From the NCBI GenBank assembly GCA_000004695.1, contig CM000154.2:4992001-5056000 (forward strand): a DNA stretch of 64,000 bases, given 5' to 3'. This document shows, in pieces, positions 8,155-40,784 of the stretch (position 1 is the first letter of the stretch; each line of letters starts with the position of its first letter). Origin of the DNA: Dictyostelium discoideum. Taxonomy: Eukaryota. The notes beneath the pieces were generated by a model. It was not told the DNA's origin, did no database searches, and saw only the letters and a list, made by a program, of their open reading frames with translations. Made by a program: the position numbers and the translations under genes.

Positions 8155-13896
<5,742 letters not shown>

Positions 13897-23655: not shown

Positions 23656-23685
23656 TTTTTCTTTTTTTTTTTTTTTGGAGTGGAA

Positions 23686-25081
23686 ATGCCAGCAGATTCT
23701 ATTTCAAAGTATTTTCTATTTTTAATTTTTTTTTTTAAATTAATAAAAAATATCTCGACAGTTTCATGTTCGCACCACAGCAAAGAGCGACCAACTACCG
23801 ATTTAGCATGTTCATTAAAAATATGTTCAGAGTTGGGAGAGCCATGTGGTAATGATACTCATTATAGTGGATTTCAATGTTATGTTGAAGATAGATGCTT
23901 AAACAGTACTTGTGTACCTAGTCTTGGTATTGGAAATGATTGTAATTCAAGTTTTGATTGTATATTAGGTACAACATGTGTTATTGATCAAAATAATAAT
24001 GATAATAATAATAATGATAATAATGATAATAGTGATAATGATGATGATAATAATAATGATAATAATGATATTAATAATATAAATAATTTTAAAGGATATT
24101 ATCATAAAAATTTAACGACAAAAGTGAATTTAAAAATTAAAAAAACTTGTCAACATTCATTTTTTGCCGAATTTGGTGATAAATGTAAAAGAAATTCAGA
24201 TTGTTTAAATAGTTTAGAATGTATTAATGGTAAATGTTCAACACCATCACTTGGATGTTTGACTGATTTTAGTTGTAATAATGATTCAATATGTAATAGA
24301 GATACAAGACAATGTGTAGTTACAACCTTAAAAGAAGGTGAATGTTTTTTATTTAAACAATTCTCTTGTAATGATCAAAACTTATTATGTGCACCAAAAT
24401 CATTTATGATTTCTTCAATTGGAATTTGTAAAAAACAAATTGAAGGTTCACCTTGTTTAACTAGTAAACTTATAAATTGTGATTGGAATTTATATCAATG
24501 GGTTTGTAGTAAACTTTTAATTTATTAAAAAAAAAAAAAAAGAGGATTATAAATGTACTAATTATTTTTTTTTAAAAAAAAAAATAAAGTGTAAACCATT
24601 GAATCCAGGATCATTAATGGGTAATTGTACAATTCAACCAAGTAATACATCAAAATCATGTATAACACAAGCTGATTGTAATTATTATGAAATGTGTAAA
24701 TGTGATAGTTCCCATTCTGGTGTTGGATATTGTATACCAAAAGGGTCTTATAACTTTTTTGGTAGTTATTGTAAAGCTTCAATAAATAAATTTTTAGAAT
24801 GTTATTATAAAACCAATTGTACAGATTTATTTTCACAAAATCCATCATCATGTTCTTATAGAAATTGCCCAGAAGAAAGTGAATGTCTTGGAACATTTTG
24901 TATTGATAAAATGTTACCAGTTGGAGTTTGTACAAATAGAAAATGTAAACTCACATTATTCAATACTACAAATGGTCATTTTAAAGTTGCATCATCATCA
25001 TCTTTTTCAAATTTTAATTTTAATTCTTTATCATATTTAATAATAACATTAATATTAATAATAATTTTTATAATAATTTAA
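23686..25081 (+). CDS. Cys-rich secreted protein with a predicted C-terminal GPI-anchor signal. Exons 23686..24501 and 24590..25081.
   Basis: Signal-like N-terminus MPADSISKYFLFLIFFF. Many spaced Cys, for example CSLKICSELGEPCGNDTHYSGFQCYVEDRCLNSTC. The C-terminus SSSSFSNFNFNSLSYLIITLILIIIFIII has a small-residue omega site followed by a hydrophobic tail. The two ORFs join only with a GTTTGT donor (24502) and an AAG acceptor (24587-24589), 88 nt. The donor is non-canonical, so the junction is uncertain. Confidence 0.55.
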
Positions 25082-25188: not shown

Positions 25189-26402
25189 TTAAAAGTTTTC
25201 TTTATGAAAATAAAATTTGGTACCACCAGTTTTTAAACAAGTATAATATCTACATTTTTCATAAAGTTCTTTTGATAATTGAGAAGGACCACAACAAAAT
25301 ACACTAATTGATTCACCGGAATACTTTTTAGAGTAATATTGGAAAATTGTATCCCAATTTGGTCTTCCCCAATGAGTTTTAAATGGTAAATTAGTGGTTG
25401 GATCTAAACCTTGTGCTTTGAATAGTTTATCTAAACCATTCCATAACATAAACACTCTAACATCATTCTTTGGAAAAACACGAGTGTTAAAGGTATTAAT
25501 GGATATTTTTGGTAAATTACTATTACCATTCGTTGAGATATCAATTAATAGGTCTTCAAACCATTGGAAACTATGTTGATCTCTATTGAGCCAAAAGAAA
25601 TGAACCTTTTCAAGATTACCTAAACCAAACTTTGTTGTAATCTCATTTTTACTTTGTTCCAATGCAATTTGATCACCTTGATTTAATAATTGTAATCTCT
25701 GTTTCTTTAATGAAATATCCTTTAATAATGATGCCATTGGTGAAACACCAATACCTGCACCCACTAATATAACTTGTTTTTGTTTTAATGCATATTGACT
25801 TGATGATCCAAATGGACCATCAATATTAATTCGAAATGGTTTTAAACCAATTTCTAAATCAATTTGATCAATATTATTATTATTATTAATAATAAAATTA
25901 GAACCATCAGGCAATACATTTTGTTGTTTAATATTATTATATAATTGTTGTTGTTGTTGTAATTGTTTTTTAATTGATAACCATCTAAATAATTTCTTTG
26001 TCCAATTACCTGTTACTCTAATATGAACATATATTTTATCCTCTAATGGTGATGAGGTCATTGTAAATGGATGCCATTGTAATTTTGAAATATGTGGTAC
26101 ATTGATCAATAAATATTGTCCAGGTTTATAATCGAATGATGGTGGTTTACTAAATGTTAAATTAATTACTCTTTCGTTCTTTAAACAATAATCTAAAACT
26201 TCAACTCTATGAGTTCTTTTAAACAATCTAAAACTTCTATCAACTGTATAAAAGAAACCTGGAACAATAAACCATTTCCAAAATGTTGGTGGTCTAATCC
26301 AACCCATTGTACCATGTAAAATTAATAAAACATAAAATCCAATAAATAAATGATGACTATAATAAAATAACTATAAAATTATATAATAAAAAATAATTAA
26401 TT

Positions 26403-26433
<31 letters not shown>

Positions 26434-27949
26434 CTTACTTCAAAATTAGATTTCCTAATAATTTTTAAAGATAAAATTGCCATAATTATTAAAAATGATA
26501 TCATAATGAAACCTGTTACACCTGGTAAACTATTAAAAATCATTTCCCAAACTGTTGGCCTAAATTTAAAATGAGGTGCTAAACAATCATAAAAAATATT
26601 ATCAGGTTTACCAGTTGCAACTGCCATACCAACAATCCAACCAATAGTATGTAAAAATGAAGCAATGATTAATGTATAACCAATTAATTTATGAAATGTC
26701 ATATATTTATCAACTGGAAATAAAAATTTAAATTTGGTATTTCTAATCATTGTAAATAATTGTTTACACATTGTCATTAAAATTATTGCTGCATTGAATT
26801 CAATTAATTGAGCTGCAATTCTTGTTATATATACACCCGGGCCAAATAATTCTATTGCTCTTTTATTATTTGCATGAACATTTAAAAAACTTGTTATTAC
26901 TAAAATTGAATTTATAATAAAAAATAAAGATATAAAAAATAATTTTGATCCTTCAATTTTTAAATATCTTTTTAAACTATGAAAACTTTCTTTTTCCGTA
27001 TATATTCCAATATTTTCTTCTTTAAAATTATAATTTGTATTTTCTTCTTTTTCTTTTACTTTATTTTCATTGTTAATTGTTAATTCACTTTTAAATTCTT
27101 CAAAATCTATATATCCATCCATATTTTTATCAAATTGTTGAAAAATGTGATCAATCAAACTTTCCATTGTAAAGTCTTGAAATTTTAACCCATTTTGTTT
27201 AGTTCTATAATTTAATACTTCTTTTAAATCATCTCTTGAAATAAAACCCTTATCATATATATCATATAATTTAAAAACACCTTTAAAATATTAAATTAGT
27301 TTCATATATTTTTACAACAATATATTAATCATTTGTTAATTTAATACATACTGGTTATTTTTTGTTCTTCACTACCAACTTTTGAAAGGTTTAAATATAT
27401 ATGATTAATTACATCAAATAAATTAATTTTTGATTCAATTTCAAATGATCTTGATTTTTTAATTTTTTTAATTTTACTATTACTATTGATACTACTAGAA
27501 AATGATTTTGATTTATAAATATGTGGTTGTTTTAAAATTGTTGGTAAAGAATGTGATTGTAACTGAACTTCACATTGGTTATTGGTTTGATTGAATGGAG
27601 GTATTGGGTTTGTTTCAATTGTATTTTCTATATTTGATTTTGATATTATTTTAAATTGGTCTGATTTAATATTCTTATCTTCAAAATCTATTGATTGTAT
27701 TGTTATAGGAATTGAAGCAACACTTGAATCAATTGAACTAGACGAAATCGAATTTCTACAAGAACTTAAAGAATCTGAAACCATTGAACCTGTATTATTT
27801 ATTGAATTATTTAAATTTGTTGGAAAACTTGATATTGAAGATTTTGGAGATATTGGTGATATATTACTTGATGGATATTCATTTTTATTAAAATTATTGC
27901 TATTATTTATAATATCATCATCATGATTATCAACAGTATTAATATTATT

Positions 27950-27984
<35 letters not shown>

Positions 27985-28075
27985 CATTATTAATATTATT
28001 ATTATTACAATTATTAATATTATTATTATTATTATTATTATTGTTATTATTGTTATTATCAATATTATTATTATA

Positions 28076-28128
<53 letters not shown>

Positions 28129-28840
28129 ACTCTACAGGGATTGGGAAAGAATTACCACCTATTGGAATTTTTAAAGTATTTTCAATTTCTTTTTTCTTTT
28201 TAAATATTTCTTCAATATCGCTATTAAAATTATTAATATCATTTATTTTATCTATATAATTATCATTTTTATCATCTATTTTACTATCATTATTATTTAA
28301 TTTTGAATTTCTGGAAAATGATTTTCTTGATTTTTTTGTTTTTTTTTTAATTTCTTTTTTTAAATCTATATTTAAACTACTATTACTTGATTTTCTAATT
28401 AAATTTGGCCTTGTAGATTGAACATATTGATTGAATATTAAATCCAAAGCCTGATTATCATTAATATTAAATAATTCTTTTAAAGAATTTTTATCAATCA
28501 TTAAAACTCTATTTCCACTTTCTTGGTTTTTAATGAACTCTCTTATTTTGAACTCATTTTCTAGAAAAAAAAATTATGATAATTTTAAAATTATTAGTAT
28601 TTTAAAATTTGTCGTTTTTTTTTAAATTTATGGTAAAATTTTACCTTTTAAACTCTCCATTAAAATTTTATCAGTGATTGAAAAATTATTTTCATTTTTA
28701 GTTTTATCAACACTTATATTTGGTAATTCTAATAAACTTGCGTCTAAAAATGTTGATTTATGTAAATTTGTCCTAAATTCATGAGGAAAAGACAATGGAT
28801 TTGCAAATTTTTTAATAGAAATATTTTTTTGTTTTTCCAT
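25189..28840 (-). CDS. noxC: EF-hand NADPH oxidase NoxC (NOX5-like), four exons: 28840..28645, 28560..27352, 27280..26439, 26370..25192. 1142 aa.
   Basis: Two EF hands: [21 protein letters not shown] and [17 protein letters not shown]. Ferric-reductase transmembrane His residues are present. FAD-binding motif [30 protein letters not shown]-binding motif [20 protein letters not shown]-terminus GRPNWD...FCCGP...FHKENF. Introns are GTAAAA/CTAG, GTATGT/AAAG and GTAAGT/TATAG, with phases 1, 1 and 0 all consistent. The summed CDS of 3429 nt equals the 1142 aa I recall for Dictyostelium NoxC. Confidence 0.85.
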
Positions 28841-29344
28841 TGTTGTTATCAAATAATTTTCATTTAGGTAATTATAAAATTTTTTTTTTTTTTTTTTTAA
28901 TGCAGTTGTAAAAAATAAATAATAATTAAACTATCGATAAAATTAATTTTTATTATTAGTAATTTAATCAAAATAAAAATATCAAATGAAATTTATGTAA
29001 CAAATTGTAAACAATGACTAATATAATGTTAAATTGATCTAAAAAAACAACAACAAAGTCCAAAAAAGGAAATTTTATTATTTTTTTTTATTTTTTTAAT
29101 ATTTTCCAAACTGGAATATAATAGCGATTATTATAACCAATAATTTATTTATATATAAACGGGATGGTATCTCCTTTTTAGAATTCCTTTCAAACTTTAT
29201 CTTACCTTCTTTTAAAATGAGAATTTTTTTTTTTACAGATTTTTTACAGATTTTTTTTTAGTTTTTTTTTTTTTTTACTAATAAAAACCAATAATTTACA
29301 ATAACCTAAATAATTTTTTTTATCTACTTTTTTTTTTAATTTCC

Positions 29345-29407
<63 letters not shown>

Positions 29408-29498
29408 AAATTAAATTCTTTTAGAGAGTATATTCTAAATCTTAAAACATTTTATTATTTTATTATAGTGGTATAGCTTCCATATAAAACTCCACCTA

Positions 29499-29529
<31 letters not shown>

Positions 29530-30009
29530 GATTATGAAATTTAAAATTGGTAATGTAATGGAAAGAGGAAAAAAAAAAAAAAAGAAATGAAAAATAAATA
29601 AAAATATTAATATTTAATAATATTAATATTATTTGGGGTGGGTGGTTGGGGGTTGGAATATTTCAAGTGTGTTGTTTGGTTGTTGAAAATTATTTTTATT
29701 TTTATTTTTTTTAATAATTACTTTTCTCCATTTTAAGAAAGTTTTAAAAAAAGAATTCTGAGATTAAATAATAAAAAAAAATAAAATAAATTTATTTTTA
29801 AAAAAAAACACTATCTTTTTTTGGTAAATTTCCAAAAATTGTAATCCCAACCATTCTTTATCATAAAGTTTTTTTTTTTTTTTTTTTTAAATTTTTGATT
29901 GGTTATAAATAAAAAAAAAGGTAAAATTTCAGCATTATAGCGATGGCACTTGCCTTATTTCCACTTTTTGTTTTTTTTTTTTTTCCCCCAAGCAAACCCC
30001 ACAAAAAAG

Positions 30010-30040
<31 letters not shown>

Positions 30041-30197
30041 TTTTGTTGTTATTATTTTTTTTAATTTTTTTTATTTCTTTATTATTTTTTTTTTTTTCCT
30101 GGTTATATAAATAGATATTTTGAATTTTCATTTAAAATTACAACATTTAATGATAGTAATTACTATTTAGGTATTACGTATTATTATGTAAAAAAAT

Positions 30198-30394
<197 letters not shown>

Positions 30395-35478: not shown

Positions 35479-36980
35479 ATGGATCCATTAGAAGAATTAA
35501 ATAAAGCATCACGTAGTGTTAGAGTTTCAATTTATAACACTACAAATAAGAAATTAGTATTAAAATCTCACCCAATCACATCTGGATCATGGAGAGTACA
35601 ACCACCTGAAACTATTTTACCATTAAGGTATGTCAATATATAAAAAAAAAAAAAAAAAAAAAATAAAAATAAAAAAAATAAAAAAAAAATTAACATTTTA
35701 TATTTAATAATATAGTACAGTTGAATTTGGATCAGAATCAAGTATGATGGGTAGTACAGAAGCAGGATCAATTTATACAATTGATGGTAGTGAAGGAACA
35801 TTTGAATTCTTTTGGAATAATCCATATTTTGGTAGAAAAGGATTTAGAAAGATTGCACCATCAGGTTATGAATCAGAGTATACCAATAGTGATACACATA
35901 ATTGTGTATTGAAATTCACAGTGAAGGAATTGGATAATGGTATGAAGGAGATTGAAGATATGGAAAAGGAGATTAGAGATTTACAAACCTATATCAATGA
36001 GGCAGATAGCGGTGTCAAGGGTATGACTAAGATGTCACAAGTTTATCAAATGCAAAAAGACGATAAACAAGTGAAACTCGTTGAAAACAATATCAAGGAG
36101 AAGACCAAACATTTGGAGGAGATGAAACAAAGAAAACAGCAATTGGAGTCCAACGTCACCAAATTGAGATCACTAGACACCGACCCAAAAGCAATGGAGC
36201 AGCAATTGACAAAGATCAGAGAATCCATTGAATCTTTAGTTAAGCAAAGAAAGGGTATGGAGCATATGAGAGAGGTTTACGAGCGTTCGAAAGATCTCAA
36301 GGCAATGGAGGCATTGGATAAACAAGTTGAAACTAAAAAGAATGAAATCGATTCATTGAGAAAGAAAGAACAAAAAGTCATTCAAAAAGTGATCGAATTG
36401 AAAAAGAGCTTAGGTCTTGGTGCAACTGGTATTCAAACTAAAAAGAAAGTAGTGGCCTTATTCGATTATACAAAGAGTACAAACGATGAATTGTCAATCG
36501 TTGCTGGTGACATCATTGATATCATTCATGATGAAGATCCTGATTGGTATGGTGGTCAGTTAAATGGTCAAATGGGTTACTTTCCAAAAGCTTTTGTTGG
36601 TCCATATGAGCAACAACAAACTTCAACTTCAACTTCTGCATCCACCTCTTCTGCCACTGATAACAATGGTGATAGTGTAAATCAACCATCATCAACTGAC
36701 AATGCTGATGAATACACTGGTGAAGATTTTAGTCATCTTTATCCAAAGGCAAGAGTTGTTTATGATCATATTCCACAAGATGATGGTGAAATCGAATTGA
36801 AAACAGGTGAAATTATAACTGTTTACTCATGGGAAAGTGATTATTGGTGGGAAGGTGTAAATAATGGTAAAACTGGTTATTTCCCAAATACTTGCGTTGA
36901 TTGGGTTGAACCTGAAGCAAGTGTTACAGATTATAGTGATTATTCATATTATGAATCAACTGATTCTACAATTGATGATC

Positions 36981-37015
<35 letters not shown>

Positions 37016-37714
37016 CCACAACAACCTCAAGCAACTACAAATACAACTACACCAACTAAAACAACCCCAGTTACACCAACACCAACACCAACCCCAGTTA
37101 CACCAACACCAACTCCAACACCAACACAAACTATTCAACCACCACCAACAGCATTTATAGCACCAAATCTTAAAGCAAATACCACTACAACACCACATAC
37201 ACCATTAAAAAGAGATTTACCAACTGCACCATCTCCATCACCAAAATCTACAATTGCACCAGTCATTAAACCAGTAGCACCAACTCCAACACCAACACCA
37301 ACTCCTGTAACACCAACCCCTGTAACACCAACCCCTACTCCAGTTGTTAAACCAGCTGAACCATCAACCCCAACTCCAACCCCAACTCCAACCCCAACTC
37401 CAACACCAACTCCAACCACTGCATTTACACCAGCAGTACCATCAAAACCAGTTACATCATCAGCATCAATTGTATCATCATCAGCATCAACTCAATTCGA
37501 TAAAATTCTTCAACCACTCATTACTGATTTCACAAAGAAATTGGTTGAAGCTCATCAAAAAGAAACTGCATTATTAAATCAAAAGATTAGTGCACTCGAA
37601 AAAGAATTAAGAGAATTAAAAGAATCTAATGGTGGTAGTACTAATATTAGATCATCTGTTACTTCAACTGCAACTGTAGTTTCAAAAGCAAGTCCAGCTG
37701 TTAGAAAATATTAA
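35479..37714 (+). CDS. Protein with an N-terminal lectin-like beta-sandwich domain, a coiled coil, two SH3 domains, a (PTPTPV)n linker and a C-terminal coiled coil. Exons 35479..35627 and 35716..37714, about 715 aa.
   Basis: SH3 motifs: ALFDYTKSTNDELSIVAGDIIDIIHDEDPDWYGGQLNGQMGYFPKAFV and VVYDHIPQDDGEIELKTGEIITVYSWESDYWWEGVNNGKTGYFPNTCV. The N-terminus VRVSIYNTTNKKLVLKSHPITSGSWRVQ...GSIYTIDGSEGTFEFFWNNPYFG resembles the fungal fruit-body lectin/actinoporin-like family by pattern. Intron from GTATGT (35628) to TATAG (35715), phase 2. Confidence 0.7.
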
Positions 37715-38353: not shown

Positions 38354-38743
38354 ATGGAACCAACATATTCAATACCAAGTACACCACTAAAGACCCCAAT
38401 AAGAATTACAGTAAATAATGGTCATAATAGTGGTCAACATTCATTATCATTATCAACATGTAAACCAACACCAGAACAAAATGCATTCAATTTAAATATG
38501 TTTAGCGAAAAGAAGAAAAATCAATATCAAACACCAAAATGTCCATCACCACCATTAAAATCAACACCAGCAAGTAGAGTCAATAGTAATCTACCATTAA
38601 TTCATCATATATCATCACTATCAATGTTTTCACCAACAACATCATTATCTGATTTCATGAATTGTGAAAATGGTGGTAGTAATAATATTGATTTTTCAAG
38701 TAGTTTTGGTAGTAGTAGTTTAAATAGTAATAATACACTTAGT

Positions 38744-38777
<34 letters not shown>

Positions 38778-40470
38778 GTGGATATAAAATACCATCAAGT
38801 GTTAATAAAAATAGTAATAATTATAATAGTAATAGTAATAGTAATAGTAGTAATAATGTTATTTCATTATTTGATAAGAATTTTGATGTAGTTTGTAAAT
38901 TAGGTAGTGGATCATTTTCAGATGTTTTTAAAGTGAAGAGTAAATTTGATGGTAATTCCTATGCCATTAAACAGGCAAGACATCAATTTAGAGGATTTCA
39001 AGAGAGAGAAAGAGCCGTTAGAGAGGTTAAAGCAGCAGTATCATTACCACCCCATACAAATGTTTTACAATATTACAGTAGTTGGGAACAAAATAATACA
39101 CTTTTCATTCAAACTGAACTTTGCGAAAATGGTTCACTTCAAGATTTTTTAGATTCACTTTCACCTGATCAAATACTATCTGAAGAATTAATTTGGAATT
39201 TTTTACTTGATGTTTGTTTAGTATGTTTAATAATAATAATAATAATAATGATAATAACAGAAAAAAAGAAATTGTTTTTTTTTTTTTACTAACTTTTTTT
39301 TTTTTTTTTTTTAGGGAATTCAACATATACATTCATATAATATGTTACATTTAGATATAAAACCAGAGAATTTATTTATTTCATCACAAGGTAATATAAA
39401 GATTGGAGATTTTGGAATGGCTGTAAAATTAGAAACAACAAATAATAATAATAATGGTAATGGAGGATGTCAATCGAATAATACAAGTATGGATAGTGAT
39501 TGTAATAATTTAAGTTTGGATGAAGATGATATATTTTTCGATTTTTTAGAAGGTGATAGTAGATATTTAGCCTACGAATTCCTATTGGATAAAAAACAGA
39601 TTAGTAAACCCTCTGATATTTTCTCAATTGGTGTCACTTTCTTTGAAATGGTCACTGGTAATGAAATGCCAACCAATGGTCCATTATGGGAACAGTTAAG
39701 AAGTGATAAAGCTATTGATTTCCTTGAACCTGGTAAATACTCTGATTCACTTTATCAAGTAATTCTAGATATGATGAAATCAAATATAACTGAAAGAATA
39801 TCTTTAGATCAAATTTTATTAAATGAAAATATTCAATTAGTTCAACAAAAACGTTTAAATCAATTTCAAAATATTGATAATATTGAAAATGATAATAATA
39901 ATAATAATAATACAGATAATAATAATAATAATAATACAGATAATATAAATAATGATAATAATGATGATAATAATAATAATATAAATAATTATAATTTAAA
40001 ATTAATAACACCATATTTTCAATATCAAAAAGAAAGAAAAGATGAAGAATTAAAAGAGATAATAGAATTTGGAGAAATACGTGAAATTAAAGAAAAGTTT
40101 GAACATCATCAATTTGCTATACCTACACCACATTTTGTGAGATCAAATGCTGGTCGTTCAAGTAGTTCATCATTATTTAGTGATGAGGAAGAAGATGATG
40201 ATGATGATGATGATAGTGGTAGAGATTCTCCAATTCATTTCAGTTTAAATAATCTTAATAATAGTAGTAGTAATATTGGTATTAGTGAGAGTAATAGTAA
40301 CAATTCTTTCTCTTCTATTTTAGAGGAAAATAATGAATCTTCATCATCATCACCCCTACCTTCTTTATCATTTTCAAGAAGACTGTCAACTTCATCATTG
40401 GTTACAACAATCTCTCCAAAACCAAATTTTAATACAAGCGGTAATAAATTATTCTCAAATGAAAATAATA

Positions 40471-40505
<35 letters not shown>

Positions 40506-40784
40506 CAAAATAATAATAATAATAATGGATTTTATGGTTTCACAAATAATGGAAGTTGTAATAATTTGAATAATTTGAATAATTTGAATAGTAGCGGTGA
40601 ATTTAGTAATAGTAGTAAAAAGAAATTAGGTAAAAGAGGGTTACCTTTACTCGATGTTGTTAATGGTGGAGGTAATAGTGGTTCAAAGGTTTGCGCAATT
40701 AAAAGAAGTTTCGATTCACATCCTCAAGAGAGTGATAAAATGTCACCAAGAAATCTTTTGAGTCTTTTCCAAGAAACAAATTAA
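38354..40784 (+). CDS. Wee1/Myt1-family protein kinase. Exons 38354..39220 and 39315..40784, about 778 aa.
   Basis: Kinase subdomains: GSGSFSDVFKVKSKFDGNSYAIKQ, HLDIKPENLF, IKIGDFGMA, and the WEE-family EGDSRYLAYEFLL with a PLWEQLRSD motif. The 94-nt intron runs from GTATGT (39221) to TTTAG (39314) and splits the catalytic domain in phase 0. Confidence 0.75.

Follow-up and report, generated by a model that had tools for sequence, protein, structure and literature searches.

The noxC locus of Dictyostelium discoideum: a four-exon gene for a single-chain EF-hand NADPH oxidase with a partly conserved N-terminal extension

Positions 25189-28840 on the minus strand of the window, the whole 64,000-nt stretch of Dictyostelium discoideum DNA analysed here, almost certainly constitute noxC, a gene of four exons encoding a single-chain EF-hand NADPH oxidase of 1142 residues. 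Judged by its sequence, the product should correspond to UniProt Q54F44, the entry given for NoxC by Zhang 2013, and to the RefSeq mRNA XM_630295. Publications of 2005-2007 (Lardy et al. 2005, Kawahara et al. 2007) had already covered the gene, together with its length, EF hands, and Asn-rich N-terminal extension. The correct rebuilding of a four-exon Dictyostelium gene from raw sequence alone therefore has little weight as a discovery. The gene is made up of the following features, and a tRNA scan of the whole 64,000-nt window found none.

28645-28840, minus strand: exon 1 (196 nt), beginning with the ATG at 28840; residues 1-65 and base 1 of codon 66; contains the beginning of the conserved N-terminal module, including residues 32-46, according to the orthologue alignment and the published N-terminus
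28561-28644, minus strand: intron 1 (84 nt), GTAAAA..TCTAG, 88% A+T, phase 1
27352-28560, minus strand: exon 2 (1209 nt); remainder of the N-terminal module (up to about residue 115), followed by a K/N/S/D-rich stretch; in its 3' part a Ser/Asn/Ile-rich linker (residues 297-437) and then a helix leading into the EF hands
28130-28174, minus strand: conserved motif in exon 2 (residues 195-209)
27869-28129, minus strand: poly-Asn tract in exon 2 (residues 210-296)
27281-27351, minus strand: intron 2 (71 nt), GTATGT..TAAAG, 87% A+T, phase 1
26439-27280, minus strand: exon 3 (842 nt); EF-hand pair and transmembrane helices 1-4, including H665/H679 in the third helix
26371-26438, minus strand: intron 3 (68 nt), GTAAGT..TATAG, 96% A+T, phase 0
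25189-26370, minus strand: exon 4 (1182 nt with the TAA stop, which occupies 25189-25191); transmembrane helix with H755/H768, FAD-binding domain (HPFT, 849-852), Q/N-rich insert (residues 883-922), NADPH-binding domain (GAGIGVSP, 953-960; CGP, 1109-1111), and C-terminal FHKENF

The four open reading frames that the original prediction had joined in frame were all found on the minus strand where it had placed them, and the three introns between them (84, 71, and 68 nt) all run from GT to AG, as it had also proposed. The joined exons (196 + 1209 + 842 + 1182 nt) give exactly the predicted coding sequence of 3429 nt, or 1142 residues plus one terminal stop. The start codon is the ATG at 28840, a start that the earlier total of 3429 nt already implied; position 28852, where the first open reading frame ends, is merely a TTG used by the ORF lister. 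The introns contain 87-96% A+T and the exons 73-82%. Retaining intron 1, 2, or 3 would bring the frame to a stop at codon 71, 472, or 755, respectively. A bacterial-style reading of the open reading frames as separate units was rejected, and the protein P0121 is exactly such an artefact: it is a read-through ORF of exon 1 into intron 1, called on Logan genomic contigs.

The evidence for the splice junctions comes from comparative alignment and from RefSeq, whose XM_ record is a model mRNA. The orthologues compared were those of Polysphondylium violaceum (P0003), Tieghemostelium lacteum (P0001 and P0005), Heterostelium album (P0122), and Acytostelium (A. subglobosum, P0004), and their alignment is gap-free over each of the three junctions (KENE at junction 1, EEKIxSxFxLYD at junction 2, and FELFYYSHH at junction 3). 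The junction peptides are those expected from the original prediction (LK-E-NEF, KIT-S-VFKLYD, and NFE-LFYYSHHLF, with hyphens at the exon boundaries) and are also present in the published Dd-NoxC. Five alternative GT..AG pairs at junction 1 and three at junction 2 preserve the frame and are free of stops, so that the same gene could be spliced there into a product of 1122-1139 residues. This is highly improbable, as each alternative loses 3-20 residues that align gap-free to the orthologues (KENE.IRE.I; SEE..I.S.F.LYD), the published protein has the proposed junctions, and junction 3 has no alternative of this kind.

The supplement of one paper (Kawahara 2007, PMC1940245) supplies the printed sequence from which the identity with the published noxC was established. 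The product is identical at 1124 of its 1142 residues to the machine-read "amoeba-Dd-NoxC: GenBank XM_630295" of Additional file 4, which has the same N-terminus and the same C-terminus, and the name NoxC given in the original prediction is borne out by this match. The remaining differences are transpositions and dropped letters of the OCR type, as commonly arise when text is extracted from a PDF; the gene product and the printed sequence may also differ at the level of the strain. In the supplementary alignment of the same paper (Additional file 2), Dd-NoxC ends with the residue numbered 1142, and its EF loops are the same as those of the product. The exact 1142-residue product is absent from a collection of 15 billion proteins. 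A homology search with the whole protein was dominated by poly-Asn word matches and returned two matches only, neither of them a D. discoideum protein, while a search with the core alone recovered the orthologues but no D. discoideum entry. A literature search with the identifier DDB_G0291117 found no paper.

The EF pair and the NOX core are common to the dictyostelid orthologues and are 49-62% identical to those of NoxC (62% for the P. violaceum core); an invariant HTxGW and the C-terminal FHKENF are also present in all of them. Their total lengths vary from 776 to 1142 residues, and the linker differs wholly in length and composition. The long poly-Asn tract and the insert at residues 883-922 occur in D. 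discoideum only, among the proteins compared.

The extension of ~460 residues before the EF pair consists of a conserved module of ~100 residues, a conserved motif, and an Asn/Ser-rich linker that is not conserved and whose length varies widely among species. The original prediction had described the first ~470 residues as low-complexity. This description holds for residues 210-296, where Asn makes up 65% and its longest run is 17, and fails for the module (residues ~12-115) and the motif (residues 195-209), which have an ordinary composition and are conserved in the NoxC-like dictyostelid proteins. The module is 41-47% identical to its counterparts in P. violaceum and T. lacteum, with 22 invariant columns, and the motif has the consensus LKIPxGGxSFPI, with the core PxGGxSFPI. 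Both are common to all the dictyostelid orthologues except that of Acytostelium. A profile of residues 12-115 found nothing besides NoxC-like proteins among 1.84 billion representative proteins.

These observations bear on whether exons 1 and 2 (residues 1-463) belong to the oxidase at all. They could represent a separate gene, or non-coding sequence left open by chance, with the real oxidase beginning near the EF hands: exon 2 is 82% A+T and mostly poly-Asn/Ser, and such tracts are more easily open by chance in an A+T-rich genome; residues 1-210 have no Pfam match; and the annotated Acytostelium orthologue is just 776 residues long and lacks the module. However, residues 12-115 and 195-209 have been kept in the NoxC-like proteins of P. 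violaceum, T. lacteum (two), and H. album, in each case on the same polypeptide and upstream of the same EF pair. The conserved KENE motif straddles junction 1, the module profile matches NoxC-like proteins exclusively, and the whole extension is present in the published Dd-NoxC. A detached or non-coding N-terminus is thus scarcely credible, and the extension is treated here as part of NoxC.

A different proposal is that the whole extension belongs to the protein as functionless low-complexity filler, of a kind common in D. discoideum proteins. The Asn content of residues 210-296, the unconserved linker of very variable length that joins the module to the EF pair, and AlphaFold pLDDT values below 50 for residues 1-50 and 117-168 are in keeping with filler. 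On the other hand, the identity and invariant columns of the module, the conservation of the LKIPxGGxSFPI motif, and the helices predicted by AlphaFold for residues 55-115 (pLDDT 70-84, in a helix-loop-helix-helix arrangement) all argue against it. The mean pLDDT is 57 for residues 1-210 and 61 for the module alone, values obtained with only four sequences each. Filler throughout the extension is therefore considered unlikely. The module would most likely have a role in regulation or in binding a partner. The filler reading is close to the description given in the original prediction. The conserved module and the PxGGxSFPI motif are the one useful addition to what has been published. Together they provide a rational target for truncation and localisation work, with the module rather than the whole 470 residues as the part to delete.

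The original prediction had also stated that the extension has no counterpart in animal NOX5. At the level of detectable homology this stands, and it is qualified by a weak profile alignment that sets the module on EF1/EF2. When the module was compared with NOX5-like proteins using hhalign, the best alignment fell on EF1/EF2 (IFNLF against RIFxLFD) with a probability of 9% and P = 0.0036. Homology of the module to NOX5 EF1/EF2 was not accepted, the hhalign probability being just 9% and non-significant. Pfam EF-hand models gave no match to the module (residues 1-210, E up to 10), and a Pfam search of the N-terminal 150-265 residues of four orthologues, also with E up to 10, gave chance-level matches only and no EF-hand. 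A speculative and rather doubtful idea is that the dictyostelid-restricted module descends in degenerate form from EF1/EF2, one half of a NOX5-like domain of four EF hands, and was separated from EF3/EF4 by a lineage-specific low-complexity insertion of ~330 residues. The EF1/EF2 alignment and the helix-loop-helix-helix prediction of AlphaFold (pLDDT 70-84) are suggestive of this idea. If so, NoxC would keep a bipartite regulatory domain of the NOX5 type across a long disordered tether.

The EF-hand, ferric-reductase, FAD, and NADPH architecture of the original prediction is backed by Pfam, with all domains above the Pfam cut-offs: NAD_binding_6 (E = 1.8e-26; 93.5 bits against a cut-off of 22.2), FAD_binding_8 (1.9e-22; 79.8 against 22), Ferric_reduct at residues 639-766 (8.6e-17; 61.8 against 28), and EF-hand_7 at residues 464-533 (8.2e-9; 36.1 against 30), the last on the same chain and N-terminal to the membrane domain, as in the EF-hand NOX enzymes of the NOX5/NoxC/Rboh/DUOX type. 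Two bis-histidine haem sites, H665/H679 (14 residues apart, in the third helix) and H755/H768 (13 apart, in the fifth), align to the NOX5 histidines. HPFT is invariant in the orthologues, and the GAGIGVSP and CGP motifs of the NADPH-binding domain are accompanied by the terminal aromatic residue F1142. All the haem, FAD, and NADPH domain features looked for are found, and on this sequence basis NoxC is a member of the NOX/ferric-reductase superfamily. Of the two EF loops, the first (residues 475-486) is non-canonical and degenerate, as already pointed out in Kawahara 2007 (PMC1940245), while the second (residues 519-530) is canonical and is matched by EF-hand_1, _5, and _6 above their cut-offs.

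One position departs from the signature of ROS-producing NOX enzymes described by Zhang 2013. His119 of NOX2, which lies four residues beyond the distal haem ligand in the third helix, has a proposed role in O2 reduction (Zhang 2013). In the alignment with NOX5, the equivalent of NOX2 His119 and NOX5 His286 is Trp683 in NoxC, and this position is an invariant Trp in all six dictyostelid sequences aligned. The signature has exceptions and is not used as a membership criterion by Pfam or in the literature; Zhang 2013 listed D. discoideum NOXC as such an exception, citing unpublished knockout data for reduced ROS. The clade-wide change from His to Trp makes NoxC a natural test case for the role of the His in O2 reduction, although the exception itself had already been noted by Zhang 2013.

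Comparisons with Dictyostelium NoxC and human NOX5, as suggested in the original prediction, returned the same protein in the first case and the best PDB match in the second (structures 6sz5 and 8u7y; E = 9.7e-77 over residues 458-1124), with DUOX1 and NOX2 next. Human NOX5 is likewise a single-chain EF-hand NADPH oxidase, collinear with NoxC from EF3 to the C-terminus, and both haem-His pairs, HPFT, GxGxG, and CGP are aligned. The alignment begins at NOX5 residue 71. However, NOX5 has four EF hands right at its N-terminus, whereas only two can be detected in NoxC (the counterparts of EF3 and EF4, with a degenerate first hand), and the ~460 residues before them lack significant similarity to NOX5. 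A Q/N-rich insert peculiar to NoxC separates its FAD and NADPH lobes. In Kawahara 2007 (PMC1940245), amoeba NoxC falls into a NoxC/NoxD subgroup, together with the NoxC of fungi and the NoxD of algae, outside the Nox5 clade. With two EF hands and this placement, the protein thus falls outside animal NOX5 proper; NoxC would function in the manner of NOX5 without being its orthologue.

Plant Rboh and fungal NoxC also carry N-terminal EF-hand(s) fused to the NOX core, but their N-terminal extensions are different from and unrelated to that of Dictyostelium NoxC. The Rboh extensions contain phosphorylation and Rop-binding regions. The EF hands of plant Rboh and fungal NoxC were aligned to NOX5 EF3/EF4 in Kawahara 2007 (PMC1940245), and the Asn-rich N-terminal extension of amoeba NoxC was already described in the same paper.

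From the conserved cofactor motifs and the homology with NOX5, the C-terminal dehydrogenase domain of NoxC is predicted to transfer electrons from NADPH to FAD. The electrons would then cross the six-helix membrane domain by way of its two haems (held by H665/H679 and H755/H768), to convert O2 into superoxide on the opposite side. By analogy with EF3/EF4 of NOX5, the EF-hand pair, located directly before the membrane domain, would be expected to confer Ca2+-dependent activity.

In the published work, NoxC has been termed a Nox5 homologue that is expressed in development, with fruiting-body defects in noxC mutants (PMC5758549), while a noxABC triple knockout has fewer ROS foci and fewer extracellular traps (PMC4773522). 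The knockout phenotypes conflict between studies: the defects go back to Lardy 2005, as relayed in PMC5758549, whereas the triple knockout developed normally (PMC4773522). A contribution of noxC to ROS and DNA-trap formation in the sentinel cells of the slug has been published, and noxC is also a SpaA target required for spores (PMC5923282).

The four-exon gene on the minus strand is the published Dictyostelium discoideum noxC. Its joined reading frame consists of the following exons (positions in the window):

28840–28645, minus strand, noxC exon 1
28560–27352, minus strand, noxC exon 2
27280–26439, minus strand, noxC exon 3
26370–25189, minus strand, noxC exon 4

The joined frame of 3429 nt holds 1142 codons and a single terminal TAA. 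The introns (84, 71, and 68 nt) are all GT..AG and have an A+T content of 87–96%, compared with 73–82% in the exons. Retaining each intron in turn results in a premature stop at codon 71, 472, or 755. The original prediction had joined four ORFs through GT..AG junctions into an NADPH oxidase of 1142 amino acids. The ORFs have been found exactly where it placed them, the junction peptides read from the sequence are identical, and the total of 3429 nt agrees; this total already presupposes a start at 28840. That position is the first in-frame ATG, while the 28852 end of the ORF-track entry is a mere TTG. All coordinates of the reconstruction are correct, as is its interpretation.

Further in-frame, stop-free GT..AG pairs occur at junctions 1 and 2, and the noxC splice sites therefore need outside support; a search for such pairs at junction 3 returned none. 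This support comes from an orthologue alignment including Polysphondylium violaceum, two paralogues of Tieghemostelium lacteum, Acytostelium, and a dictyostelid-like sequence from EukProt, which is gap-free across whichever junctions each protein covers. The strings KENE..IRE, SEE..I.S.F.LYD, and FELFYYSHH are kept across junctions 1, 2, and 3, respectively.

The full Dd-NoxC sequence has been printed under "GenBank XM_630295" (Kawahara et al. 2007, PMC1940245). When the product was aligned to this machine-read text, as the original prediction had proposed, 1124 of the 1142 residues agreed. The 24 mismatches are of the kind that text extraction from a PDF tends to produce (swapped, lost, or doubled letters), and all three junction peptides are found in the text. 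The supplementary files of the same paper match the gene model at every checkable point, including both EF loop sequences and the last residue, numbered 1142. The UniProt accession is Q54F44 (Zhang et al. 2013). The exact protein was absent from a collection of 15 billion proteins, and the NoxC homology searches returned no D. discoideum protein. The literature already covers the gene along with its length, EF hands, and Asn-rich extension, and knockouts exist.

A Pfam search of the product identified four domains, every one over its curated cut-off:

aa 464–533, EF-hand pair
aa 639–766, ferric-reductase transmembrane domain
aa 805–939, FAD-binding domain
aa 947–1122, ferric-reductase-type NAD-binding domain

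The best relative in the PDB is human NOX5 (6sz5, 8u7y, and others; E 9.7e-77), collinear over aa 458–1124, followed by DUOX1 and NOX2, in agreement with the NOX5-like core originally predicted. The haem ligands H665/H679 and H755/H768 are present and aligned with the canonical 14- and 13-residue spacing, as are the HPFT (849–852), GAGIGVSP (953–960), and CGP (1109–1111) motifs, and the terminal Phe is kept. EF loop 2 is canonical and loop 1 is degenerate. NoxC has all the structural features that define NOX catalytic subunits as a family, and all those of the EF-hand NOX group. Its sequence shows a complete NOX electron-transfer chain, from NADPH to FAD and then to two haems, fused to the EF-hand pair. 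By homology with NOX5, Ca2+ binding to the EF pair would switch on electron flow and yield superoxide.

Although NOX5-like in its working, the protein belongs to the NoxC group and is not orthologous to animal NOX5. Animal NOX5 has four EF hands, while two are detectable in NoxC, which also has a long additional N-terminus. The two, one of them non-canonical, have been equated with Nox5 EF3 and EF4, and the published phylogeny places amoeba NoxC with fungal NoxC and algal NoxD (Kawahara et al. 2007, PMC1940245).

Four positions past H679, NoxC has Trp683 (codon at 26637–26639) where NOX2 and NOX5 have a histidine (H119 and H286, respectively) with a proposed role in O2 reduction. D. discoideum NOXC has already been listed as an exception at this site, with mention of unpublished knockout data on reduced ROS (Zhang et al. 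2013). The clade-wide reach of the substitution is an observation of the present analysis: the position, in the context HTxGW, is invariant in all six aligned dictyostelid NoxC-like sequences. Between the FAD and NADPH subdomains there is a Gln/Asn-rich insert (25852–25971, aa 883–922), missing in the five other dictyostelid sequences; NOX5 proteins also have a variable insertion at this site.

The first ~470 residues had been described as low-complexity. By composition this holds for aa 210–296 (65% Asn, longest run 17) and aa 297–437 (Ser/Asn/Ile-rich), but not for the whole extension, since aa ~12–115 and 195–209 are conserved. This N-terminal module (aa ~12–115, including LFNI...IFNQY) and the 195–209 motif are kept in P. 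violaceum, both T. lacteum paralogues, and Heterostelium album; the second T. lacteum paralogue has no clear LKIP motif. Identity to these proteins over the module is 41–47%, with 22 invariant columns. The linker from the module to the EF pair differs wholly between species in length and sequence. The Acytostelium subglobosum entry (776 aa) does not have the module, which may be a gene-model artefact. The H. album entry (XP_020438691, 572 aa) ends within the first transmembrane region. Both public gene models look incomplete.

Among 1.84 billion representative proteins, a profile of the module matched four only, all NoxC-like or an exon-1 artefact; the module is therefore confined to this clade and to the NoxC protein. 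AlphaFold, with four sequences only, gives helices at ~55–78, 89–96, and 101–115 (pLDDT 70–84) and values below 50 elsewhere. In a profile–profile comparison with NOX5-like proteins the module falls on the EF1/EF2 region. That it is a degenerate EF1/EF2 remnant is an unlikely and unproven idea, because the probability of this match is 9% (P = 0.0036) and Pfam EF-hand models do not match the module. The conserved module is a minor, checkable addition to a known gene.

The artefact, P0121, is a 70-aa protein whose frame runs from noxC exon 1 on into intron 1. Its prokaryote-style gene call lies on three short Logan contigs (L001–L003, from SRR28564543, SRR26869267, and SRR26869266) that correspond to 28098–29369 at 99.6–99.7% identity (3–4 mismatches each). 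P0121 exemplifies how a eukaryotic exon can turn into a spurious small protein in collections.

PMC5758549, citing Lardy 2005, describes NoxC as a Nox5 homologue expressed mainly in development, and reports fruiting-body defects in single noxA, noxB, noxC, or cybA mutants under axenic conditions. The noxABC triple knockout develops, yet its slug sentinel cells form fewer ROS foci and DNA extracellular traps, and bacterial clearance is poorer (PMC4773522). The sporulation factor SpaA targets noxC (PMC5923282).

The G+C content of the window is 22.8%, and the neighbours of noxC are:

8155–13896, minus strand, RasGAP and VPS9 protein, 1913 aa
15182–16498, minus strand, cytochrome P450
18016–19854, minus strand, homeodomain and ankyrin-repeat protein
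23680–25081, plus strand, pair of neighbouring Cys-rich ORFs, one of 282 aa with an N/D-rich insert, followed by one of 160 aa
30395–33130, minus strand, 911-aa gelsolin-repeat ORF, next upstream of noxC on the same strand
35744–37714, plus strand, protein with two SH3 domains and one HR1 domain
38354–40784, plus strand, protein kinase with its domain split across two adjacent ORFs

The gelsolin-repeat, homeobox–ankyrin, P450, and RasGAP–VPS9 neighbours are in keeping with a Dictyostelium chromosome. The upstream intergenic region (28841–30394) contains no ORFs of at least 60 aa. It has a long (ATT)n microsatellite (~30200–30330), several poly-A/poly-T runs of 20–60 nt, and a G-rich tract, tggggtgggtggttgggggttgg (~29634–29657), amid DNA of ~85–90% A+T. 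The gelsolin-repeat ORF has a long Glu/Lys/Val-rich repeat region of EEVKEE units. The Cys-rich ORFs, which have no Pfam match, converge on the noxC 3' end with only ~108 nt between stop codons and probably belong, as exons, to a single Cys-rich protein that is secreted or in the membrane. The homeobox–ankyrin neighbour presumably resembles Wariai, whose dictyBase number is close to that of noxC. The split of the kinase domain points to a likely intron at ~39293–39341.
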